From: Candidatus Cloacimonadales bacterium
GTDB lineage: Bacteria; Cloacimonadota; Cloacimonadia; Cloacimonadales; JAIOQZ01
DNA length: 64,000 nucleotides
Assembly: GCA_963665815.1 (NCBI GenBank)
Contig: OY762463.1
Span: 672,001 to 736,000 of the forward strand
Reading direction: 5' to 3'
The notes beneath the pieces are model-generated. The model worked only from the letters and a program-made list of their open reading frames with translations, did not search any database and was not told the DNA's origin. How positions within the stretch are numbered: the first letter of the stretch is position 1; each line of letters starts with the position of its first letter. Below, piece after piece: positions 16,313-32,418 of the stretch. A program made the position numbers and the translations under genes.

Positions 16313-17080
16313 ATGAAAAAGATAGTTTTCATACTATTTGTTATGTTGCTTTTTATCATAAGCTGTAACAAAAGAGAGAAAATTACAGACCTGAACCAGT
16401 TAGCTGAGAAAGAATTTGCAGTTCCCACAGGAACCATTGCAGATAAGCTTGTACAATCAAAGTTTCCGGACACATCATTCAAGTATTTTAACACAGTACT
16501 TGATGCATGCATGGCTGTAAAAACAGGTAAAGCAGATGCTGCAGCTTACGATGAACCTATCCTTAAAAATATAGCAGCAAAAGTAGAAGGGTTAACCGTA
16601 CTGCCTGACATGATCACCATAGATGAATACGGCTTTGCAGTTGATAAAGAAAATGTAGAACTTAAAAAAGTAATAGATGAAGTTGTGGCATCTTTAAATG
16701 CTGATGGCAGCTATAATGATATGATGAAACGCTGGTTACCGGAACAGGGGGCTCCTGCAGATATGCCTCAATTTGATTACTCCGGTACTGATGGTATTTT
16801 AAGATTTGGAACATCCGCTGTCACTGAGCCATTCTCATTTATTGATGGTAAACAGAATGTTGTTGGACTTGACATTGAAATTGCTTCACTCGTTGCAAAA
16901 AAAATGAATATGAAACTCGAAATAGTAAATATGGATTTTGGTGCGATGATACCGGCTGTTCTTTCCAAAAAAGTTGATTTTATAGGTGCCTGCATTACAA
17001 TTTCTGAAGAAAGAAAACAGAAAGTACTTTTCTCAGAACCATATTACAAGGGTGGGATTGCTGCACTTGTTGCAGAATAA
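16313..17080 (+). CDS. Polar amino-acid ABC transporter binding lipoprotein (permuted lobe order)
   Basis: Lipobox IISC; SBP_bac_3 segments present (PFSF, GLDIEI, ITISEER, FSEPYY). Confidence 0.85.
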   Translation: MKKIVFILFVMLLFIISCNKREKITDLNQLAEKEFAVPTGTIADKLVQSKFPDTSFKYFNTVLDACMAVKTGKADAAAYDEPILKNIAAKVEGLTVLPDMITIDEYGFAVDKENVELKKVIDEVVASLNADGSYNDMMKRWLPEQGAPADMPQFDYSGTDGILRFGTSAVTEPFSFIDGKQNVVGLDIEIASLVAKKMNMKLEIVNMDFGAMIPAVLSKKVDFIGACITISEERKQKVLFSEPYYKGGIAALVAE

Positions 17081-17118
17081 AAACCTTATTTTTGAAATAA
17101 AAACTTTGTCATCTAATG

Positions 17119-17138
17119 AGCCGATTGTAAAATCGGCT
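17119..17138 (+). promoter_or_regulatory. Intercistronic stem-loop after the binding-protein gene
   Basis: AGCCGATT-gtaa-AATCGGCT. Such hairpins are common after SBP genes, where they affect differential mRNA stability. Confidence 0.5.
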
Positions 17139-17154
17139 TATCTTTAATAAAGGG

Positions 17155-17838
17155 ATGTTTATGGATTCTTTAGTATCAAGCTTTGTTAATAATATCATTG
17201 TTGAAGACCGTTATCTGTTAATTATTGACGGTCTGCTTACAACAATTACTATTACTTTACTATCTGTTCTGTTCGGGGTTTTACTGGGAAGTATTATCTG
17301 TATGCTGAGAATGTCGGGAAACAAAATACTTTCCGGATTTGCCAGAGCTTATATATCCATTCTAAGAGGTACACCACTACTGGTACTGCTGATGCTGATT
17401 TTCTATGTTGTTTTCGCATCAGTGGATATTGACCCTGTTCTGGTTGCAGTTATAGCATTCGGATTAAACTTTGGAGCTTATTCCTCAGAGATATTCCGTA
17501 ATGGGATTAACAGTGTTCCAAAGGGACAGACTGAAGCCGGTCTTTCCATGGGATTCTCCGCTTACCAGACTTTCATCCATATAATCCTCCCACAGGCATT
17601 AAAGAGAATTATCCCTGTACTTAAAGGGGAAATTATCACATTGCTGAAAACTACTTCTATTGTTGGTTATATTGCTGTGCAGGATTTAACCAAAGCAAGC
17701 GATCTGATTCGCGCCAGAACATTTGACCCGTTTTTCCCTCTTGTACTGATTGCGATTATTTACTTCCTTCTGTCAAAGCTTCTTACGGTACTACTTGATT
17801 TTGCAGGCAACCATCTGATTCATGGTGGTTCAAAATGA
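17155..17838 (+). CDS. Amino-acid ABC transporter permease
   Basis: [21 protein letters not shown] (EAA loop) and ILPQA motifs. Confidence 0.93.
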
Positions 17839-18929
17839 TCAAAGTACGAAATTTAAAGAAATCATTTGGTGATACTTTGGTCCTGAAAGATGTTAATGCA
17901 GAAATCAGTAAAGGTGAGGTCATATCAATTATCGGACCATCAGGAACCGGTAAATCAACATTCCTGCGGTGTCTTAATCTGCTTGAAGTACCTGACTCCG
18001 GAGAGATACAATTCCAGAGCAAAGACCTTCTTGCCGACTCTACTGATATAAGTCTTGTACGTCAAAAAATGGGGATGGTTTTCCAGGCATTTAATCTGTT
18101 TGAACACTTGACGGTAATCCACAATCTTACGATTGCCCCAATCAAGTTACTGGGTATGAGCAAATCCAAAGCACACAAGAAAGCTATCGAAACACTCAAG
18201 AAAGTAGGGCTGACTGAGAAGGCGGACAGTTACCCGGATGAATTGTCCGGAGGCCAGAAACAGCGTGTAGCCATTGCCAGATGCCTGATGATGAATCCGG
18301 AGGTCATATTATTTGATGAACCGACATCAGCTCTTGATCCAACCATGGTCGGAGAGGTATTATCAGTAATAAAAAACCTCGCAAAAACTGGAATGACAAT
18401 GGTGATAGTAACTCACGAAATGGACTTCGCAAGAGATGTTTCAGACAGAGTATTCTATATGGATCAGGGAATTATTTTTGAGAACGGTTCTCCTGAACAG
18501 ATATTTGAATCACCGCTGACAATTGAAGCGGATGTATTTATTAACAGAATTAAGAATTTCCATTACAGCATAAAATCCAGAAACTATGACCTTTATGCTC
18601 TTAATGCAGAAATAGTAACATTTGCAGAGAGACAGTTCCTGAACAAACTATTGATTGAGAGAATCGAACTTGTTACAGAGGAAATCATTCAGATGTATCT
18701 TGATAACAGTGCTACAGTCGATGCTGAACTTGAAATAGCTTATTCAGGTAAAAAGAAGCAGTTGCAAATAATCCTGAACTACAAAGGCAGCAAACACGAT
18801 GTATTTGAGATGTCAGATAATGCTATCTCTCGCAAGTTGTTGGAAAGCTATACAGATAAGATAGAATATGAATATTTAGGTGACAATCGAATTGTACTTT
18901 TCGTAAAACTTGATCACATTGATCATTAA
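17835..18929 (+). CDS. Amino-acid ABC transporter ATPase (GlnQ-like) with a ~125-aa C-terminal extension
   Basis: [25 protein letters not shown] and VTHEM motifs, followed by an extra domain after about residue 240. Confidence 0.92.
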
Positions 18930-19948
18930 GATTTTTTTGTCTGATTTTCAGCCAGAAAATATATCTGCCATAGCTCTTTTACAGATTGATTAAGTAAAGG
19001 AGAAACCACTTTCTGACCAGACTTTCCTATACTTTTTTTCAAGTATTCCAGTTCTTTGAACTTGTCCTTAATTTCCTGTTCAACCGGTTCATTGAATCCT
19101 GCTTCTCGCATCATAAGAACCCCCTTAGACCTTATAGCTAATTCCAGGTAAACTCTTAAATAGCAGTGAAGATCTAAAACAATCTCAGGAGTAAAGCTGG
19201 ATGAGAATCTGGACATATATTGCCCTGTTTTCGAGTCTTTAAACTTTCCGCTCTTCAGGTTGTTAAGCAGCTCAACGTTTGTATCAAAACCTGTTTGAAG
19301 CCATTTCTTAAGTCCCTTTTCACTCTCAGTAAATACAAAACTGATTATTACCGGAAGAACAATGACCTGAGAAATAACTTTGTATAATGGATCAATGCTG
19401 AGTGTATTAAATGCAAAATGGATTGATGCAGCAGCAATATACCCGGGGAAAAATCTACTTACTTGAAAAGTGGTACTTTTACTAATTAGCATTATTGATA
19501 TCATGGAAAAGATTGCCGTTGTACCACCATGCATTATTGCAGTACCAAAACCTCTGACAATCCAGAAATAGATTCCTGAGTCATGTATATAAGTCAGATA
19601 ATAGATATTCTCAAAAATTGCAAAGCCACATCCGACAGAAAATCCGGATATTGCTGCATCGATAGTAAATCCTATCTTATTTCTTCTTATCAGAATGATT
19701 GGCATTATCACCTTTAAAGCTTCCTCAAGAAATGGAGCAATGTATCTTATCAGAACACTGTCTGCAACACCAAAATGATTTAAGAGCGAAAAGTTTGCAA
19801 TCCAGGCAACAATAGCGACAATAAGACCTGAACCGATATAAATCAAAATCCTTCTATAGCTCATCAGCTTGTATGAGTCAAGAAAAGCCAGAAGTGCAGA
19901 GAACAATACTATCGGGGCAATACTTATCAGAATATCTAAAACTAACAT
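18926..19948 (-). CDS. PrsW-family glutamic intramembrane protease with a cytoplasmic C-terminal domain
   Basis: Multi-TM protein with EEALK (EExxK), FAIFEN (FxxxEN), MHG and IHFAFN (HxxxN). Confidence 0.85.
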
Positions 19949-19954
19949 GGCATC

Positions 19955-22885
19955 CTATAGTATTTTAAGACTGAACATGATTTCTTCTTCTCGGTTGCTG
20001 TCTCTATCCCAACCTGTAGAATAACCAATTGAGAAAGTTGTCTTAATGAATGAGAGAGTCACAACTCTTAAATCTATCTGAGTTCCTGCATTATAATAGT
20101 ATGCCTTATCGTCATTATCAATGTCAGTATGGATAATCGATCCAAAAAGAGACATTCTGAGCCATCTCATGTAAAATGCAGCGTTTCCTATTTCTTCAAA
20201 TCTTAGTGGTGGTAAATTCAGTTCCAACATATTTCTTACGAAAGATTTACCTTTGATTTCATTTATATCAAATCCTGGAAACGAGCTGTATTTCCTGTAC
20301 TGTTTCTCATGTTTCTTTTCTACATAGTTGTTACCAAAACCACCAAAATAGTAATTACTGAAAGAGTCTTTTCTATCGCCAAAAGCATAACCTGCAGCAG
20401 ACCTGAGAAATATTGATGTATGTTTAACAGGAAGTAAATAACCCAGCGAAAAATCTCCGTGAATTTTCGGATGAATATCTGAATTTACTTTTGTTCCCTG
20501 TACATTCACTGAAAATGCAGCTCCCTGCTCATCATCTACATGTCCCAGAGAGTTCTGAAAGAATTTGTAATCCAGTTTTGCTGCTGCAACATACATTTCA
20601 GTAAAATCAGAGCCTATTTTCTGATACTCAGGAAGTTTTTTCAGGTCTCCATAACCATCAAAATCCAGAGAAAGATTCATCATCTCAGGTTTATTGTAAA
20701 TCAGGCTTTGAGTAAAACCTGCACCATAAGAATATCCCTTTCTACTCACTTTTACTGGGCCGAATATATCGTAGAAATCAGCCTTATTGTAAGTTCCTCG
20801 CAAGTTGAACATCCTGTAAGAATATCTACAGCCCAGATGCAGCTTCTCTTCATCTTTTAAATTATCACCAATCGGAGAGTAAGATACGGATAGTTTAATG
20901 CTGTTGAATCCGATATCATCCGAGTAGTTCATAAGATAACCATAAGCCATATAGTCTTTATAGCCTTCAATAATGGGATAAGTACCTTTATTTCGAAAAT
21001 TGCGGATATAACTGTATTTTCCTTCATATGTTTTGAGAGAATCCAGATTAATTTTTGCAGGCGAGCCATCTCCCCACTCTTTTATGTATGGATACTTCTC
21101 ATAAACTTTCTGTCCAAGGAAAGCAATAGCACTGACATTTTCCACATTTTCATTCTTTATAAATCCCGGCTGCCATCCTTTACCACCAACATAGTTATAG
21201 ACAATAAGACTATCATTGCTTATCGGAAGAGGACGAAAGAATCCGGTTTCGCTGTTGGATATGATTGATATATCATTTTCTTCAAAATCGTATCTGTATA
21301 TGTTTGAAACTCCTGAATAATAGGATGTACCAAACAAATATCGACCATCATCTGAGAATACAAAATTTGCCGGAGAGCTGTAGTCAAAGTCATAGATCAG
21401 ATTTTCTACTACCTTGCCTGACTGCAATGCAGCCATATCATAATACACAAGCTTCTGATTTCCATCTATCTGTGTCAGTGCCCCGGTTAGTTTTGTTCCA
21501 TCTGGAGAAATGTCCAGATCATATAAGTCGCTTCCATACTCAAATGCATAAATTGCAGTCCAGTCTTTATATGGAGGATCGATTTTCACAATTGTGGAGA
21601 TACCGTTCTCATGCCTGATACCCCATATTGATTTATCTACCTTATTCAGAGCCAGTTCTCCTGTTCGACTGTCTCGAATCAACAATTCTGTTTTCCCTGT
21701 TGATATATCAACAGTGTTAAGGTCTCTTCTGTAAAAGTTGTCTGTAGTAAATATTATTCTGTTCTCATCTTCAATGTAGACAGGATTGGTTGTAAAATAT
21801 GTGGAGGCACCTTTGATATTACATATCTTTCTTTTCTTTCCGGATTCCAGATCAATTTCCATCAAACCTGGTAATTGACCTGCATACTTCACACCTACAA
21901 ACAGTTTTTTTCTGTCTTTGCTCAGGTAACTACGCGAAACTGATCCCATTGGTTTTGAACCATTCACAGGTCTGAAATCAGTAACCGGATTCTGTCTTAT
22001 TCTTTGCAGATTCATCAGTTGAAACTCTCTTTCAAACTCAATCCATCGATCCCATTCCTCAGAAAGGTTTTTGTTATATACTTTAGTAAACTGCGAAGCG
22101 TAAAAACCCTTTGACTCTTTGTCTCTTTTCACCCATTCAACAAGTTTATCCGGACCATACATATAAGCGAGATATCCGAAAAAACGTGTGCCATACATAT
22201 AAGAGTTAGCTCCAACCTGAAAGTCAATTGCTGTTCCTTCCGCTTCCAGCCCCACCATTCTGTAGAAATGGGCATCATCTTTAATCATTCCACGGAAAAC
22301 CATTTCATCATAGGCACCCATTGCCCTGCCTATACCACCTCCCATCCAGGTTTCCATAGAGACGGCTATTCCTTCATGATACCATCTGGGAGCGTATTTT
22401 CTTGGGTTTGTAAGATATCCGTAGAGAAATGTTATAGGATCATCTGCAGTATGCTGTATTTTGCTTCTGAATAGCTTTCTGAAAAAGTAATCCTGAGGAG
22501 AATACATATCCATAGCCAACACATGAGTAAGTTCATGGTGCATAAGTAAACTCATTCGTTCTGCTGCAGGAGCAACTTCAAAAACATACATATACGGAGA
22601 CATACTGATATAAACAAAATTGTTTGTAACAGCTGTTGCTCCACCATTAGACCAATCAGAGAAATCCTCAATGAATATTGATGTTTTTTCGTATGGTTTA
22701 TACTTCCAGAAATCCTTATAGTAATCCCATGTCCTCAAATAGCATCTTGAAATATGAGGTATGATATAGCTATGAGAATTACTGTAGTATATTAAATTCA
22801 TGTCATCTGTTTTGATATTGTTTAAAGGAAATGAAAATATCAGCACATTAACTGCTAGCAAAATCAATGTCATTTTGAATTTCAT
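19955..22885 (-). CDS. Large exported protein: gluzincin-like peptidase domain, TolB/PD40-like propeller and probable C-terminal beta-barrel
   Basis: Signal peptide; HHELTH plus WYHEGIA; SPDG/SDDG propeller repeats; alternating aromatic beta-strands in the C-terminal third. Confidence 0.7.
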   Translation of the reverse strand: MKFKMTLILLAVNVLIFSFPLNNIKTDDMNLIYYSNSHSYIIPHISRCYLRTWDYYKDFWKYKPYEKTSIFIEDFSDWSNGGATAVTNNFVYISMSPYMYVFEVAPAAERMSLLMHHELTHVLAMDMYSPQDYFFRKLFRSKIQHTADDPITFLYGYLTNPRKYAPRWYHEGIAVSMETWMGGGIGRAMGAYDEMVFRGMIKDDAHFYRMVGLEAEGTAIDFQVGANSYMYGTRFFGYLAYMYGPDKLVEWVKRDKESKGFYASQFTKVYNKNLSEEWDRWIEFEREFQLMNLQRIRQNPVTDFRPVNGSKPMGSVSRSYLSKDRKKLFVGVKYAGQLPGLMEIDLESGKKRKICNIKGASTYFTTNPVYIEDENRIIFTTDNFYRRDLNTVDISTGKTELLIRDSRTGELALNKVDKSIWGIRHENGISTIVKIDPPYKDWTAIYAFEYGSDLYDLDISPDGTKLTGALTQIDGNQKLVYYDMAALQSGKVVENLIYDFDYSSPANFVFSDDGRYLFGTSYYSGVSNIYRYDFEENDISIISNSETGFFRPLPISNDSLIVYNYVGGKGWQPGFIKNENVENVSAIAFLGQKVYEKYPYIKEWGDGSPAKINLDSLKTYEGKYSYIRNFRNKGTYPIIEGYKDYMAYGYLMNYSDDIGFNSIKLSVSYSPIGDNLKDEEKLHLGCRYSYRMFNLRGTYNKADFYDIFGPVKVSRKGYSYGAGFTQSLIYNKPEMMNLSLDFDGYGDLKKLPEYQKIGSDFTEMYVAAAKLDYKFFQNSLGHVDDEQGAAFSVNVQGTKVNSDIHPKIHGDFSLGYLLPVKHTSIFLRSAAGYAFGDRKDSFSNYYFGGFGNNYVEKKHEKQYRKYSSFPGFDINEIKGKSFVRNMLELNLPPLRFEEIGNAAFYMRWLRMSLFGSIIHTDIDNDDKAYYYNAGTQIDLRVVTLSFIKTTFSIGYSTGWDRDSNREEEIMFSLKIL

Positions 22886-22943
22886 AGAAATTTTAAACTC
22901 CTGTAACTTATTTTGAGAGAACCTGATTGGAACATATAAATGT

Positions 22944-22969
22944 AAAAAAAAGAGCCGAATAAACGGCTC
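22944..22969 (-). terminator. Intrinsic terminator inside the cluster, after the 308-aa gene
   Basis: Minus strand reads GAGCCG-tttatt-CGGCTC followed by T8. Confidence 0.75.
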
Positions 22970-22977
22970 AGAACTTT

Positions 22978-23904
22978 CTACCAGCCACTTAACTTCAGTT
23001 GATTATGTTTCAAATCCTGAAAATCACTCTCATGCAAGTGAATTACAACGTTCTGAAAAGATTGATTAAATGCCAATGCTTTGAAAGCAGTATTATTAAA
23101 ATCAAGACCATAAGCACCTATACTTTTCTGAAAATCTGCTGACCAAAATTTATTGAAATCTGAGGAAAACGTACCGACACTGGATTTCAAACCAGTACTA
23201 AAGAATTTTTCCAGATTCATATTAGTATAAAGTAACTTAGAAAGTTCATCTGAACTTATTGCTTTGTCTGCATCATAGCCAGGAATAATAAAAGCATGAA
23301 TATCACTGTCATTCTGTAGTGCATTACCAATATCCGTATTCTGCATAACAGCCATAAAAAGATTGAATTGATTATCACCTTTATCTGAACTCCATGCAAA
23401 GTTTTTTTGATATTCTAACGCCCATGCACAGAATTTTTGTATATCAATCGAAAAATAGCTTAGAAATGATCCCAGAACTGAATCATTCTCCGAGTTATTT
23501 GTTACATAGTTCTTGTATTGCTCACTTAGCTTATTCACATCCATGTTTTCGAAGTCGACTTCTAAAAACATCTTATTGACACTTCTCATCCAGAGTGCGG
23601 AACCCTTCAACTTATAAATAGCTCTCATTCCCTGTTGAAAGTGATCACTCTGAAGCATTTTTACGAACTTTTCATCTTTCATGGCATTCTGCCACTCTGC
23701 ACTCTGAGTAAGCTTTGTCACTTCAGGGCTATCCAGAGTTAAATCCTTTTCAGACATCTGTTTTCCCCTGAACTTCTCAGCTTTCTGAACACCACCAAGG
23801 GTTCCCTGAGTGTTATTATTATCAGTTAAAGGCCAGTTTTTGGCAACATACATTATCCCTGCAGCTATTACAAAAACGACGACCAAAATAATGATTTTTT
23901 TCAA
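22978..23904 (-). CDS. Membrane-anchored or exported protein with degenerate S-x-D-F-Q-K-like repeats
   Basis: TTG start with GGAGG RBS; N-terminal hydrophobic helix; repeats SAEWQN, SDHFQQ, SIDIQK, SSDFNK, SADFQK, NQSFQN and ESDFQD. Confidence 0.75.
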   Translation of the reverse strand: MKKIIILVVVFVIAAGIMYVAKNWPLTDNNNTQGTLGGVQKAEKFRGKQMSEKDLTLDSPEVTKLTQSAEWQNAMKDEKFVKMLQSDHFQQGMRAIYKLKGSALWMRSVNKMFLEVDFENMDVNKLSEQYKNYVTNNSENDSVLGSFLSYFSIDIQKFCAWALEYQKNFAWSSDKGDNQFNLFMAVMQNTDIGNALQNDSDIHAFIIPGYDADKAISSDELSKLLYTNMNLEKFFSTGLKSSVGTFSSDFNKFWSADFQKSIGAYGLDFNNTAFKALAFNQSFQNVVIHLHESDFQDLKHNQLKLSGW

Positions 23905-23919
23905 TTTTTCCTCCAGTGA

Positions 23920-24243
23920 TTAAAATTTTTCTATCGAATTTTCCAGTTTATCATCAATATTCAGAATTCTTGAAAATCCTGCTATATCGAATATCTCTTT
24001 TATGAACTCTTTCATACAGCATAATCTGAAATGACCACCATTTTTTTTCATTTTTTTGGCATTCATCAGGATTATCCTTAATCCGGCACTACTGATGTAT
24101 TCCAGCCCAGAAAAATCCATTATAATTTTCATGTTATCTACAGATTTCATCTTCTGACCCAGCTTATCAAATGTATTGGAATCAAGTCTACCGGATAGTT
24201 TTATTATCAAAACATCATTATACAAGACTTCAGTAATATCCAT
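23920..24243 (-). CDS. STAS anti-sigma factor antagonist (RsbV/SpoIIAA-like)
   Basis: GRLD, DFSGLEYISSAGLR with the phosphorylatable Ser, and IFDIAGF. Confidence 0.93.
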   Translation of the reverse strand: MDITEVLYNDVLIIKLSGRLDSNTFDKLGQKMKSVDNMKIIMDFSGLEYISSAGLRIILMNAKKMKKNGGHFRLCCMKEFIKEIFDIAGFSRILNIDDKLENSIEKF

Positions 24244-24245
24244 TC

Positions 24246-24665
24246 TTACTCCTTTATTATCTTTTTTAAAACTAATATATTATGTTCATTATCTCTTGAG
24301 TATCTTACATCATCCATTTTTTCTTTGACCAGCATAATTCCCAGTCCTCCAATCTCCATCTCATCAATTTCCAAATCAAGATCAGGTGTATCACTTTCAA
24401 GAGGATTAAATGCTTTGCCATCGTCAGTAATAGTGAGTTCCAGTGTATCACCATTGTAATCATAGGAGACATGGATAATGTGTTTTTCAGTATCATCAAA
24501 ACCATAGGAGATAATATTCGTCAGAATCTCATCAAGTGAAAGAGTTAAATCAAAAACTGATTTCACGGGGAAATCCAGTTTCTCTCCGATACTTTCTATC
24601 CATTCAACAACTTTTCCAATTTCCGGAATCTTATTCTCTATTTCGATTTTATCTGTATGTTTCAT
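24246..24665 (-). CDS. Anti-sigma factor/Ser kinase (RsbW/SpoIIAB-like HATPase)
   Basis: DEILTNIISYG (N box), DDGKAFNP and GGLGIMLV. Confidence 0.93.
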   Translation of the reverse strand: MKHTDKIEIENKIPEIGKVVEWIESIGEKLDFPVKSVFDLTLSLDEILTNIISYGFDDTEKHIIHVSYDYNGDTLELTITDDGKAFNPLESDTPDLDLEIDEMEIGGLGIMLVKEKMDDVRYSRDNEHNILVLKKIIKE

Positions 24666-24671
24666 AATATC

Positions 24672-26570
24672 TCACATATTACGTTTGAGGAACAATAATG
24701 TAATATCATCGAACTGCCTGTTCCTCTGAAAATCAGCTAACTGGTCAGTTAACTTATTAATCAATTCTTCCATTGTCAGAGAATGATTCTCCTCAAGATA
24801 GTTAAGAAACCTATCCTCTCCGAACAAGTTATTGTCTGCATCAGTAGCTTCAATTACGCCATCTGTATACAGTATAAGAGATTCATTAACATCAAGTTTT
24901 ATTTCACCATTATGAAATTCATGTTCATCATCAATACCAAGTGCTATATCCTGTTCTGTCTTCACAACTTTGGAAATCCCTGATTCAGATATAATTATCG
25001 GATAATCATGACCGGCATTGGAATATGTCAGTACTCCGGTTGAAACATCATAGAATCCAAGAAACAATGTGGTGAACATGCAGGCGTCATTATCCTGACA
25101 AAGTATGTAATTTGCTTTATTCAGTGCTTCAGCAGGTGTTAAATCAACTGTACAAACCGTTTTCAGCAGGGTTCTGGTTACAGCCATAAACAATCCGGCA
25201 GAAATCCCCTTTCCGGAAACATCTGCCATAATTACAGCAAGAACGTTATCATTCAAAAAAAAGAAATCGTAAAAGTCACCGGCAACCTCTTTTGCTGCAA
25301 TATTCTTTGCATATAAGTCAAATTCTTTTCTGTGAGGGAAAGCAGGGAAAATCTGAGGAAGAAGCGATTCCTGAATCTGACGGGCAATTCTCATTTCACT
25401 TTCTACGGCTTCTTTTGCCTGAGTCACACTGGTGAGATTACTGATGTATTGCTTCAAGTCTGCAACCATCTTAACAAATGAATGCTGAAGAGCCGCAATC
25501 TCATCCTGGCTGTCATTTGTTTCCATCTTGACATCTAATTCACCATAAGCAATTCTTTCGGTTACATCAACCAGTTTTTTCATCGGCACAGAAAAACGTT
25601 TTGCAGAAATAATAATTATAACCAATACAATAATCAATCCTGAAAACATTATGAGAAACTGCTTAATCACGTTTTTTCTGACTTCTGACAATACAATTTC
25701 TTCCGGTATTACAGCGGCAAAGCTCCATCCTGTTGACTGTATAGGTGTATAAACAATCCACTTTTTTTGATCATTATCAAGATCGTTATAACTCTCTATC
25801 CCACTCTCTCCTGCCAGCATACTTCTGCCAAGCTCTCTCAGTTCAGGTCTTCCGTATTGTTCTGCAAGGCTGAATATAGACTCGACCATGATATAATCCT
25901 CTCGCGGATGATATATAAATGTCCCGTTTTTACTGATTATAAATGTATAACCATTCATTATCTTTATATTACTTAGCATTTCAGACATGACTTTCAAAGA
26001 AATATCAGCATAAGAAACTCCAATAACCTTATCTTTTTTAATAATAGGATATGCCCGTAACATCAGCAGTGTTTTGCTAATTCTACCCCAGAATGGATCA
26101 GACCAGTATCCCTTTTTTAATACTGCCGGGATTACAAACCAGTCCTCTTTTAGATAATCGTATTGTGCAGCAACATCAGACATTGCGAATTCGCCGTCTT
26201 TTCTGTGAATAAAATTTGCATACTTCTTATTCTTGAAAGCTTCAGGATAAAATGCTACTCCCGAGCCAACATTATCCGGATCGCTTTCCAGTTCCTTAAC
26301 AACAAAATCGAAAACCAGGTCTTCATTATAGGTGTCGGTTGACTCTACCAGATTTCTTATACTGTTTGAAGTCTGAGACAGTTGCTCGAACTCTCTATCA
26401 AGCTTTTGAGCATTGTGACGAGTAAGCTCTTTTAAATACCTTTTTGTTTGATCAAGAGCATTATTCTTATTAATTATATAATTGTAAATGAGAACAAACA
26501 TATAGATTATTATTAGAGGGATTCCAAGTCTAGCTGTGAGCTTAAGCCATATTGGTCTTTTAATTTTCAT
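24672..26570 (-). CDS. Cache-HAMP-SpoIIE/PP2C sensor phosphatase (RsbU-like)
   Basis: Two TM helices around a Cache domain (WSDPF, GYTFII), HAMP (DEIAAL), VAGDFYD, ADVSGKG, NAGH, YTDGVIEA and DDITL; GGAG RBS before ATG 26570. Confidence 0.92.
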   Translation of the reverse strand: MKIKRPIWLKLTARLGIPLIIIYMFVLIYNYIINKNNALDQTKRYLKELTRHNAQKLDREFEQLSQTSNSIRNLVESTDTYNEDLVFDFVVKELESDPDNVGSGVAFYPEAFKNKKYANFIHRKDGEFAMSDVAAQYDYLKEDWFVIPAVLKKGYWSDPFWGRISKTLLMLRAYPIIKKDKVIGVSYADISLKVMSEMLSNIKIMNGYTFIISKNGTFIYHPREDYIMVESIFSLAEQYGRPELRELGRSMLAGESGIESYNDLDNDQKKWIVYTPIQSTGWSFAAVIPEEIVLSEVRKNVIKQFLIMFSGLIIVLVIIIISAKRFSVPMKKLVDVTERIAYGELDVKMETNDSQDEIAALQHSFVKMVADLKQYISNLTSVTQAKEAVESEMRIARQIQESLLPQIFPAFPHRKEFDLYAKNIAAKEVAGDFYDFFFLNDNVLAVIMADVSGKGISAGLFMAVTRTLLKTVCTVDLTPAEALNKANYILCQDNDACMFTTLFLGFYDVSTGVLTYSNAGHDYPIIISESGISKVVKTEQDIALGIDDEHEFHNGEIKLDVNESLILYTDGVIEATDADNNLFGEDRFLNYLEENHSLTMEELINKLTDQLADFQRNRQFDDITLLFLKRNM

Positions 26571-27516
26571 TGTCTGCTCCTTCAGGATCATAAATGAAAT
26601 CATTATACTCAATCTTATTTTTAATCATTTTCTGATTAAACAGAGCTTCTCTCACATTTTTATACTTGGATTCGTCCAGTTCACCAAAAGTATCATCTGT
26701 GAAAGCAGATTCAAGTATAGTTTCCAGCATCCACCTCTGCTCAGCATAGTTTGTTTTCAGTTTCCACTTAGAACAATATTCAAGAACCTTATTGATAGTC
26801 TCTTCCTTATTATCTCTGGCATACTCCCAGCCTCTTTTCACTGCTTTTCTGACACTATCTACTTCATTTCTATTTGATTCCATGTATTTAGAGGTAACGT
26901 ATAAGCCATCTTCCGGGAAGTTCATATCTGGATCTTTGGAAAAGAATATTGTGTTCATCTCATCGAAGTTTTTTCCTGCCAGATACAACTTGTAATATTC
27001 ATTGTAGTACATTGCTGCTGTGGCTTCGCAGGCACCGGATAAAAACAGGTCCATATTATAAGAACCTTCAATTCTATCAAATTTCAAATTATGCTTTCGG
27101 ATAAATGCATTGAATGACACATCAAAATCACCACTCCAGAGTCTGATTTTTCTGCCGTTCAAGTTATCAGGTGTCTCAATCCCGCTTTTACTGTCAGAAA
27201 CAATCATCAACGAGGAGTTTTGCAATATCTGCATAATATTTACAACTGATTTGTCATCATTATTTCTAATTGCACCTGTCAGCCAGGCTGTACAATAATC
27301 GATTTCACCGGATTTCAACTCATTAATCAAATTCTGAGAACCATCGGAAAAAATGAACTCAACTTCAAGATTGTTTTCTTCAAAGAATCCCTTTTCTTCT
27401 GCCATGATAAAACCAGCAAACTGGGCTTGAGGGTACCACTGAAATTTCATTTTAATAACATCTGCATTACAGTATACTGATACAAAAAAAATCATTATTA
27501 CAATTGCTTTTCTCAT
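26560..27516 (-). CDS. NMT1/THI5-like periplasmic binding protein
   Basis: Signal peptide; QWYPQAQFAGFIMAEEKGFF and YYNE motifs; overlaps the phosphatase gene by 11 nt. Confidence 0.85.
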   Translation of the reverse strand: MRKAIVIMIFFVSVYCNADVIKMKFQWYPQAQFAGFIMAEEKGFFEENNLEVEFIFSDGSQNLINELKSGEIDYCTAWLTGAIRNNDDKSVVNIMQILQNSSLMIVSDSKSGIETPDNLNGRKIRLWSGDFDVSFNAFIRKHNLKFDRIEGSYNMDLFLSGACEATAAMYYNEYYKLYLAGKNFDEMNTIFFSKDPDMNFPEDGLYVTSKYMESNRNEVDSVRKAVKRGWEYARDNKEETINKVLEYCSKWKLKTNYAEQRWMLETILESAFTDDTFGELDESKYKNVREALFNQKMIKNKIEYNDFIYDPEGADNEN

Positions 27517-27925
27517 TAATTGTTCCCTTATTCCTGTTTGATTTCCGGATTTTATGTATATTTATACAATAATATTAACATATATGTAAAAATGTCCACA
27601 TAAAAAAAGAGGTTAGTATACAGTGCTACTTTAAAAATCTGCTCAATTTCACTGTTGATAGTAAATTAACAATTATCTATACAAATGTAAAATTTCTACT
27701 ATCACAACATCAACACATGTTTTTTCATTTTCAAAATCTTGTCTTATACAGCAGGCTATGAGTATATTTTCTCGAATGATGAATATAGTTAATATGTAAA
27801 ATAAATGATTAACTAACTCAACTAACTTACAGTCTTAAAAGTATAACAAAAATTGACACTGACTTCAGGAATACCTTCATTGAAAGTTAATGTTAGAAAT
27901 ACTTCCTGTAATATACTCTTAGCTC

Positions 27926-32418
<4,493 letters not shown>

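Follow-up and report, generated by a model that had tools for sequence, protein, structure and literature searches.

We analysed a 64,000-nucleotide (nt) window of the genome of Candidatus Cloacimonadales bacterium (contig OY762463.1, positions 672,001 to 736,000), in which seven genes for predicted signalling and envelope proteins lie on the minus strand at 18926..27516; coordinates are positions in this window unless a locus is named. The first four genes, which we call module A, encode a 318-aa NMT1/SsuA-like periplasmic solute-binding protein (SBP; 26560..27516; Pfam NMT1, 3.5e-31), a 646-aa sensor phosphatase in which two transmembrane segments (TMs) are combined in the order TM-dCache-TM-HAMP-PP2C (24672..26612; Pfam SpoIIE, 3.6e-51), a 139-aa RsbW-like serine kinase or anti-sigma-type HATPase (24246..24665; Pfam HATPase_c_2, 1.7e-22) and a 107-aa RsbV-like STAS anti-anti-sigma protein (23920..24243; Pfam STAS, 3.8e-16). 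The remaining three genes form module B, hereafter the triad. They encode Rep308, a predicted N-in signal-anchored periplasmic repeat protein of 308 aa with a TTG start (22978..23904), Big976, a 976-aa protein with predicted peptidase-like, propeller and barrel parts (19955..22885), and a 340-aa PrsW-family intramembrane metalloprotease (18926..19948; Pfam PrsW-protease, 5.8e-19). A terminator-like hairpin, GAGCCG-TTTATT-CGGCTC followed by T8, lies on the same strand between the Rep308 and Big976 genes (22952..22969).

The list of open reading frames (ORFs) confirmed the seven co-oriented, tightly packed genes, and Pfam together with NCBIfam confirmed five of the families that an earlier interpretation made from the letters alone (the sequence-only reading) had assigned to them. 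The intergenic gaps of 6, 2, 15, 92 and 6 nt were also as it had given them, while its first value, an overlap of 11 nt between the SBP and phosphatase genes, depends on the start codon of the phosphatase: the most upstream start listed by the ORF tool (TTG) gives an overlap of 53 nt. The cluster is limited upstream by a non-coding stretch of 409 nt (27517..27925, minus strand), the presumed promoter region, and downstream by a convergent gene for an ATP-binding cassette (ABC) ATPase. As the sequence-only reading had stated, there is no sigma factor inside the cluster: the genome holds 14 Sigma70_r2 matches, the nearest of which lie approximately 54 kb and 78 kb away.

Comparison with other genomes showed that partner switch and triad are modules which can occur apart from each other, and that the triad occurs here in a sigma-less form, at the level of both genome and phylum. 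The reading that we prefer is that two conserved modules stand head to tail, and that the triad is a trans-envelope proteolytic unit which works here without its usual extracytoplasmic function (ECF) sigma factor; we consider the chances of this reading to be about even.

The triad across phyla and its sigma-linked form

A scan of species-representative genomes yielded 692 matched stretches, 594 of which encode a relative. We kept the best 80 loci (numbered with L) and counted neighbouring genes by searching their ORFs with the proteins of the window. These best 80 loci belong to Cloacimonadota, Fidelibacterota, Calditrichota, KSB1, Ignavibacteriota, Balneolota, Bacteroidota, Chlorobiota, Fibrobacterota, Gemmatimonadota, Zixiibacteriota, Eiseniibacteriota, Krumholzibacteriota, Delongiibacteriota and Acidobacteriota. 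PrsW was encoded on the same strand and at most 2 kb downstream of the barrel gene in 58 of the 61 loci with at least 1,100 nt of downstream DNA; among the three misses (L025, L045 and L055), L045 has PrsW as an overlapping ORF call. On the other side, a Rep308 relative was recognised by sequence in 45 of the 64 loci with at least 1,500 nt of upstream DNA, and inspection of the other 19 revealed the same N-terminus followed by other repeats. A hidden Markov model (HMM) of the Rep N-terminus had a match immediately upstream of the barrel gene in 62 of the 64 loci, and nearby or in a split gene in the other two. The triad is a near-invariant unit across many phyla, and the co-occurrence of its three proteins in other genomes, on which the sequence-only reading had staked its proposal, is borne out. 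One Delongbacteria locus has three tandem Rep-like genes 5' of the barrel gene (L021:7449-9571), with no ECF or Rsb genes within reach.

In its canonical form the cluster has the order (PP2C)-RsbW-RsbV-ECF-anti-sigma-Rep-Big976-PrsW. Among the 42 loci with at least 5.5 kb of upstream DNA, an ECF gene was present upstream in 34, an anti-sigma gene in 35, RsbV in 35 and RsbW in 30. The ECF protein of approximately 180 aa consists of Sigma70_r2 and r4_2 and is encoded between RsbV and Rep. It is followed, still ahead of Rep, by a protein of approximately 260 aa that combines a conserved N-terminal domain with a single TM and a periplasmic part rich in beta structure; from its sequence we read it as a candidate anti-sigma factor. 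Canonical clusters further encode a cytoplasmic GAF-PP2C phosphatase, either ahead of RsbW or behind PrsW.

A dyad search 5' of the Rep gene recovered CCAAC-N14-18-TGTA in 21 of the 42 loci, compared to at most 5 in shuffled sequences. Mapped on all 80 loci (1.14 Mb), the motif gave 61 plus-strand versus 13 minus-strand matches; it occurred within 200 nt 5' of the ECF gene in 19 of the 42 loci, of the Rep gene in 22, and of either gene in 31. The promoter-like motif standing before both genes is CCAACTTTT-N12-TGTA, with the consensus ACCAACTTTT-N11-12-TGTA(T/A)TT. The copy before the ECF gene was found only by mapping back the motif found 5' of Rep, as searches for 5+4-mer dyads 5' of the ECF genes (as a set), the Big976 genes and the RsbW genes returned nothing above shuffles. 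In 13 of the 19 loci (L012, L017, L019, L029, L031, L044-L046, L056, L066, L067, L069 and L070), the motif starts exactly 28 nt before the called ECF ATG and its -10-like TGTATTT abuts the start codon, which suggests a leaderless ECF mRNA. Judged by sequence and position, CCAAC...TGTA looks like an autoregulated ECF promoter, with a second copy driving the triad; an ECF-type motif 5' of the triad would make it an output of the sigma factor in canonical loci. Together, the frequencies of the ECF and anti-sigma genes and the motif indicate that the family is linked to a sigma factor in the manner of sigmaW/RsiW/PrsW. The sigma-free composition emphasised by the sequence-only reading therefore holds for the lineage of the window, but not for the family, in which an ECF gene lies between RsbV and the triad in 34 of the 42 loci.

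The sigma-less form and the independence of module A

An HMM built from 23 cluster ECFs scored 203-276 bits on the ECFs of the 42 loci. No orthologue of the cluster ECF was found with it in the window's own genome (best score 106 bits) or in the 121 genomes surveyed from the phylum (best score 117.8 bits), and an anti-sigma HMM had no match in the window's genome at E<=0.01. The CCAAC...TGTA motif was not found in the window's cluster, even allowing 2 mismatches; in the CCAAC-N14-18-TGTA form it was also not found in the 409-nt stretch upstream of the SBP gene, where sigma-70-like matches were generic and at chance level only, and 5' of the Rep gene it was seen in none of 18 ECF-less loci. Four Fidelibacterota genomes with ECF-less clusters reached best ECF HMM scores of 132-142 bits. 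The genome-wide test is validated by a Gemmatimonadota genome that carries the motif at its locus without an adjacent ECF and encodes a 252-bit ECF orthologue elsewhere. In a FastTree phylogeny of 79 barrel proteins, a clade of 63 rows (support 100) holds all 39 ECF-bearing loci, and the Cloacimonadota and Fidelibacterota rows fall outside it; as the tree is unrooted, it is compatible with either gain or loss of the ECF. The presence of the unit without ECF, anti-sigma or ECF-type promoter indicates that the triad works without that sigma in this lineage. In addition, the GAF sensor of canonical clusters is exchanged here for an SBP and a dCache-HAMP sensor.

A full-text literature search found no description of the cluster. 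The available part of an ECF classification paper (PMC7826278) mentions PrsW for no groups other than those of Bacillus/Clostridioides, and STAS for none but ECF19 subgroups; an ECF group with the context of this cluster may stand in the remaining part of that material. What was proposed as a conserved, undescribed system thus stands as a triad kept across phyla, and its one-system and sigma-free points had to be corrected.

The SBP of module A begins with a hydrophobic, signal-like segment (residues 5-23), and the phosphatase has TMs at 29-47 and 319-337, either side of its Cache region (hydrophobicity scans); apart from SpoIIE, the phosphatase matches the Pfam families MCP-like_PDC_1 (1.5e-16), dCache_1 and HAMP. 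The RsbW-like protein matches NCBIfam RsbW models at 7.5e-15, under their cut-offs, and is the only stand-alone RsbW-like protein in the genome (phmmer), while RsbV matches TIGR00377 at 2.4e-21, above the cut-off. By eye, RsbW carries 'EILTNIISYG', 'DDGKAF' and 'GGLGIMLV', which we take to be its ATP-binding boxes, and RsbV carries 'EYISSAGL', whose serines are presumably the place of phosphorylation as in relatives. With a PP2C phosphatase, a HATPase_c_2 kinase and a STAS substrate encoded together, module A is predicted to be a partner switch of the chlamydial RsbU type that senses a ligand. SBP orthologues are encoded immediately 5' of the same phosphatase in L087, L100, L101, L102, L104, L105, L005 and L006. 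As to the target of the switch, no sigma gene lies in the cluster or beside stand-alone copies of module A. The 14 sigma-70-family genes of the genome include FliA-like and RpoS/RpoH-like sigmas, and none of the 12 that were scanned was of the SigB/F/G type above cut-off.

We then compared the distribution of the two modules in the 121 genomes of the phylum (numbered with G; G000 is the window's own genome and G001 a genome of the same genus). Big976, and with it the triad, was found in 9 genomes, whereas full-length matches to the phosphatase architecture (E<=1e-60) were found in 69. Close phosphatase orthologues (E<=1e-150) occurred in 16 genomes, namely 7 of the 9 triad-bearing ones and 9 of the 112 others; as these genomes are kin, the counts are not independent and are descriptive only. 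The co-directional seven-gene run was confined to G000 and G001. In G114 module A is divergent to the triad with one gene between, and in G031, G055, G097 and G108 the triad has no Rsb genes beside it. The SBP, phosphatase, RsbW and RsbV genes form an operon of their own off the triad in G049, G031 and G055 (117 kb from the triad in G055), and in G108 the phosphatase, RsbV and RsbW are encoded on a contig other than that of the triad. Altogether, of the 7 other triad-bearing genomes with readable context, 4 have module A apart from the triad. Outside the phylum, module A adjoins an ECF-less triad at the Fidelibacterota loci L005 and L006. At another Fidelibacterota locus, RsbW and RsbV are followed by a 405-aa protein composed of STAS and approximately 300 aa of unassigned sequence (L004:3811-5028), and then, before the triad, by a fused permease/substrate-binding ABC protein of 937 aa and an ABC ATPase (L004:5068-8697).

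These data bear on the proposal of the sequence-only reading that the seven genes are one system, in which the phospho-switch directly controls the triad, PrsW frees the repeat protein and the barrel peptidase processes or exports it. The tight packing with a 15-nt RsbV-Rep junction and the same arrangement in the same-genus genome are consistent with it, as are an RsbV gene within 5.5 kb upstream in 35 of the 42 loci from many phyla, Rsb genes at ECF-less Fidelibacterota loci and a predicted complex of PrsW with the Rep N-terminus (see below). Export would also find a parallel in the Omp85-family barrels that secrete passenger or partner proteins, according to the available text of PMC4104836. 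However, RsbW and RsbV are cytoplasmic, and the sole cytoplasmic part of the triad is the C-terminal domain of PrsW, which is equally conserved without nearby Rsb genes; no POTRA or TpsB-type features were seen; and module A is frequently located apart from the triad. The occurrence of module A alone in three genomes, and in 69 versus 9 of the 121 genomes, indicates that the partner switch cannot depend on the triad. The single system has accordingly given way to two modules, and we regard direct control of the triad by the switch as improbable.

Adjacency could also be without functional meaning, with module A acting on a target encoded elsewhere (another sigma factor or an RsbW-domain fusion) and being a chance neighbour of the triad in this genus. 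All four module A orthologues standing alone in G049, G031 and G055, the much wider distribution of the phosphatase and the FliA-like and RpoS/RpoH-like candidates among the genome's sigmas fit this explanation, as do proteins of approximately 500 aa with an N-terminal HATPase_c_2 domain that adjoin module A in G049 and G114. Nevertheless, the adjacency recurs in varied arrangements (co-directional in G000 and G001, divergent in G114, and at two Fidelibacterota loci), a GAF-PP2C, RsbW and RsbV are part of canonical clusters in many phyla, and close phosphatase orthologues are concentrated in triad-bearing genomes, kinship notwithstanding. We consider a chance neighbourhood possible, though clearly less probable than the reading of two functional modules placed head to tail. 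For the latter, sister genomes in which the modules are independent speak against an obligatory link, while their common upstream region and the 15-nt RsbV-Rep308 junction suggest that module A and Rep308 are probably co-expressed in this genus.

The proteins with the RsbW-like domain just mentioned measure approximately 500-546 aa (L100:4519-6030 and L104:1613-3250, both on the minus strand) and contain approximately 350 aa of unassigned sequence with one weak GNAT match; judging from their domains, they are possible outputs of the partner switch. The flanks of the window's cluster are ordinary. Upstream lie genes for a glycoside hydrolase family 29 (GH29) alpha-L-fucosidase with an F5/8 type C domain and a GH2 beta-galactosidase (27926-32406, minus strand), and downstream, in convergent orientation, genes for an amino-acid-type ABC transporter with SBP_bac_3, permease and ATPase (16313-18929, plus strand). 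PADLOC assigned none of the seven cluster proteins to a defence family.

Architecture of the triad proteins

Rep308 matches no Pfam or NCBIfam family. A hydrophobicity scan placed a single N-terminal TM at residues 3-21, with about two cytoplasmic residues ahead of it. The TM is followed by the conserved juxtamembrane motif GT[IL]GGVxKAEK[FY]R..Q..D[LV] (motif alignment) and by degenerate helical repeats, with 'xxDFQ/N' occurring about five times in residues 247-300; an HMM of the juxtamembrane motif found a single copy in the genome. Across loci, the N-terminus of the family consists of the TM, often YPP, and then GT[IL]G.V.K..[YFH]R..Q...D[VIL].L, while the repeat part varies freely in unit and in length (approximately 200 to 1,135 aa). 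The anti-sigma candidate shares these features in part: the separate protein also has GT[IL] approximately 15 residues past its TM, and in Ignavibacteriota and Balneolota loci its N-terminal domain is fused to the repeat protein. The fusion, the common anchor and the GT[IL]G motif tie the repeat protein to sigma control and suggest that the triad also triggers the ECF.

The hairpin with its T8 tail sits in the 92-nt gap behind the Rep308 gene and is retained in the same-genus genome. A perfect hairpin with a T-rich tail was present in the Rep-Big976 gap of 30 of 52 related loci, compared to 4 of 52 shuffled gaps. Its conservation is a further new feature of the cluster. From its sequence and position it looks like a built-in attenuator or stabiliser that gives more repeat protein than enzymes, and does not look like a sign of unrelated operons.

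By sequence, Big976 has only a sub-threshold PD40 match (Pfam), HELTH at residues 117-121 and a signal-like N-terminus. It has more than 4,055 relatives, and every named one is labelled hypothetical; the 120 matches listed are 45-100% identical over near-full length and come from Cloacimonadota, KSB1, Neomarinimicrobiota, Krumholzibacteria, Delongbacteria, Bacteroidota and others. An AlphaFold2 model (predicted local distance difference test, pLDDT, 85.3; predicted template modelling score, pTM, 0.85) consists of a signal peptide, an alpha/beta domain (approximately 22-300), a six-bladed TolB-like propeller (approximately 302-580) and a C-terminal beta-barrel of about 16 strands (approximately 620-976). 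Residues 302-558 of the propeller superpose on TolB (1crz) with Z 23.1 and a root-mean-square deviation of 2.8 A over 240 aligned residues (Foldseek E 4e-9). Sequence identity to E. coli TolB is approximately 14%, and the TolB equivalog model TIGR02800 gave 28 bits versus a cut-off of 343. The propeller of the model is TolB-like in fold, and a common fold does not show a common function.

The peptidase and barrel parts are predicted from the model only and are weaker assignments than the propeller. In an alignment of 50 family sequences, H117, E118, H121, E171 and E178 are invariant. Pfam detected Omp85_2 in 20 of these 50 members (best E 1.6e-5), PD40 in 17 and Peptidase_MA_2 in 3 (best E 2e-5). 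No POTRA was found in the Pfam scans of the 50 members, and residues 590-617 before the barrel are short helices in the model; this is consistent with the non-POTRA Omp85 subfamilies described in the available text of PMC4104836. Sequence searches of the PDB with Big976, with the 50-sequence profile and with a profile of the peptidase domain gave nothing significant beyond a weak propeller match. Most likely, the protein is an outer-membrane barrel carrying a zinc peptidase and a propeller, which would be on the periplasmic side.

The window's genome encodes a second protein of the same architecture, 1,013 aa long, with a HELTH motif, a weak Peptidase_MA_2 match, PD40 and a C-terminal Omp85 (L111:5655-8696, minus strand; G000:C1 ~2024654-2027695). 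Its gene faces an ECF sigma gene (L111:4772-5317) and a 128-aa ORF in convergent orientation. Against the Big976 family, its peptidase part alone aligns (hhalign, probability 30%, E 5e-4), and on these sequence features it may represent a distant sister family that is likewise ECF-linked.

This architecture raises the question whether the triad is a machine for outer-membrane biogenesis or quality control, akin to a BamA/BamB-like fusion with a BepA-like protease, rather than a signalling unit. The ECF would then merely induce it under stress, with PrsW and Rep as accessories. Consistent with such a role, canonical loci have the ECF-type motif 5' of the triad, which makes the triad a sigma output, and the triad is also kept where the ECF is missing. 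Likewise, the hairpin that separates Rep from Big976-PrsW suggests that a structural protein and its enzymes are made in unequal amounts, and WD40-Omp85 proteins have been likened to a BamA-BamB fusion (Heinz and Lithgow, PMC4104836, in the available text). On the other hand, two lineages have the repeat protein fused to the anti-sigma domain, and the anchor and the GT[IL]G motif are common to anti-sigma and Rep. Moreover, most of the phylum does without the triad (present in 9 of 121 genomes), and the Big976 family has no detectable similarity to the genome's own BamA (hhalign, probability 0.6%). We consider a pure biogenesis machine rather unlikely, and prefer a proteolytic unit related to signalling.

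The PrsW protein of the cluster matches PrsW-protease (PF13367) at residues 35-202 with 68.8 bits versus a cut-off of 23.5, and five hydrophobic segments reach the scan threshold. E75, E76, K79, F109, E113, N114, H140, H177 and N181 are invariant in 25 orthologues and match what we take to be the catalytic motifs of the family, EExxK/R, FxxxE, H and HxxxN. An M50 site-2 protease is encoded elsewhere in the genome (PF02163, 219.5 bits, 450-aa frame); to our knowledge such genes are near-universal, so its presence says little. The PrsW proteins of the triad form a subfamily of approximately 336 aa with a conserved cytoplasmic C-terminal domain (approximately 205-340 in the window protein). This domain had 432 matches in 1.84 billion representatives, nearly all of them in this same setting, at approximately 200-335 of proteins of approximately 330-345 aa; a search of the ESM Atlas with it gave a best score of 0.80 and no lead. 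In two much longer proteins, P0239 (1,365 aa) and P0236 (568 aa), the domain lies at approximately 200-330, and these may be fusions or merged gene calls.

As the only cytoplasmic part of the triad, the C-terminal domain makes a direct link to the partner switch testable. The triad might be an autonomous trans-envelope proteolytic device that predates, or does not need, an ECF, with the partner switch acting post-translationally on this domain. If true, the output of a partner switch would be an intramembrane protease instead of a sigma factor, and a periplasmic small-molecule signal would be coupled to the cleavage of an envelope-spanning rod. We regard this as a long shot.

The pairing of PrsW with the repeat protein, which the sequence-only reading had suggested to model, was examined by complex prediction using our own alignments. 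PrsW with Rep308 residues 1-95 scored 0.39 (runs 0.12, 0.39 and 0.45), the best of three controls scored 0.00, the partner reached a pLDDT of at least 56, and at least 94% of the contacts were common to the runs. In calibration, 116 of 157 solved complexes passed the mark used, as did 2 of 215 mismatches, and the range at or below 0.60 held only 18 of the 157 solved complexes together with both passing mismatches. The prediction thus exceeds its controls but lies in the weak band, and lends weak support to an interaction.

Proposed function and relation to known systems

We propose that the triad spans the envelope, with a helical-repeat protein anchored in the inner membrane, a peptidase/propeller/barrel protein in the outer membrane and PrsW in the inner membrane. 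In most phyla, a dedicated ECF sigma would transcribe the triad. The triad would probably also control the ECF through cleavage of the anti-sigma, which has the anchor and GT[IL]G motif of Rep, as in the Bacillus sigmaW/RsiW/PrsW system. In the lineage of the window, we infer that Rep308 is most likely a substrate or partner of PrsW and would be cut close to the membrane, with the outer-membrane peptidase trimming it. Gene content, synteny, the motif, the lack of the ECF and the propeller fold of Big976 are established by the analysis; the cleavage steps, the topology of the peptidase and any coupling to module A are inferences.

Several results weigh against this reading. Module A is organised independently of the triad in the genomes described above, and the terminator-like hairpin splits Rep308 from Big976 and PrsW, so that a single transcript is not assured. 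The complex of PrsW with the Rep308 N-terminus scores in the weak band. Big976 itself was matched by neither Omp85_2 nor Peptidase_MA_2 in Pfam (E<=0.01), its family did not match BamA, and fold searches with the whole 976-aa model listed propellers only and were silent on the other two domains. Finally, should the ECF only act on the triad without being triggered by it, the analogy to sigmaW would break down for the canonical form as well.

Textbook examples of sigma-factor control include PrsW-type site-1 proteolysis and Rsb partner switching, known mainly from work on Gram-positive bacteria. The cluster combines the two with an outer-membrane peptidase/propeller/barrel protein and with an anchored repeat protein, and it is found in hundreds of double-membraned species, almost all of them uncultured. 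The sigma-less form shows a stable core made up of the three envelope proteins, around which the regulators are exchangeable (an ECF or none; GAF or SBP with Cache). It also offers a simple minimal system for heterologous reconstitution. In this way, the sensing by PrsW in diderms, the role of WD40-Omp85 proteins and the targets of sigma-less partner switches become testable.

Among known systems, the Bacillus sigmaW/RsiW/PrsW/RasP pathway of regulated intramembrane proteolysis is the closest to the canonical cluster. PrsW is the site-1 protease of RsiW in Bacillus (available text of PMC3482391), and the PrsW-family protease of the cluster has intact catalytic residues. Akin to the Bacillus system, the canonical cluster has an ECF followed by a single-pass anti-sigma candidate and an autoregulatory-type promoter, and a site-2 protease gene is located elsewhere in the window's genome. 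In contrast, the window's genome lacks the cluster sigma and anti-sigma, PrsW has an extra conserved cytoplasmic domain of approximately 130 aa, and the cluster adds the outer-membrane peptidase/propeller/barrel protein, the anchored repeat protein and usually a partner switch.

Partner switching of the chlamydial type comprises a sensor phosphatase, an anti-sigma kinase, together with an anti-anti-sigma protein and a target sigma (available text of PMC11619594). Module A likewise has a single operon for a periplasmic-sensor PP2C, an RsbW-type kinase and a STAS protein. It differs from RsbU/V/W switching in that no target sigma is adjacent, here or in stand-alone copies, and in that a gene for an NMT1-type solute-binding protein always lies just upstream. 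The triad clusters of other phyla have the cytoplasmic GAF-PP2C in place of its membrane sensor phosphatase.

Big976 itself resembles two known families. A 'WD40-Omp85' subfamily with a TolB-like propeller is catalogued in the available text of Heinz and Lithgow 2014 (PMC4104836), and Big976 likewise has a TolB-like propeller N-terminal to a predicted Omp85-type barrel, with no POTRA found. That text describes neither a peptidase domain nor a context of PrsW or a sigma factor; we liken the two by description and do not assign membership. With TolB of the Tol-Pal system it shares the six-bladed propeller, which superposes closely. Unlike TolB, to which its sequence is only distantly similar, Big976 carries this propeller fused between a peptidase-like domain and a barrel.

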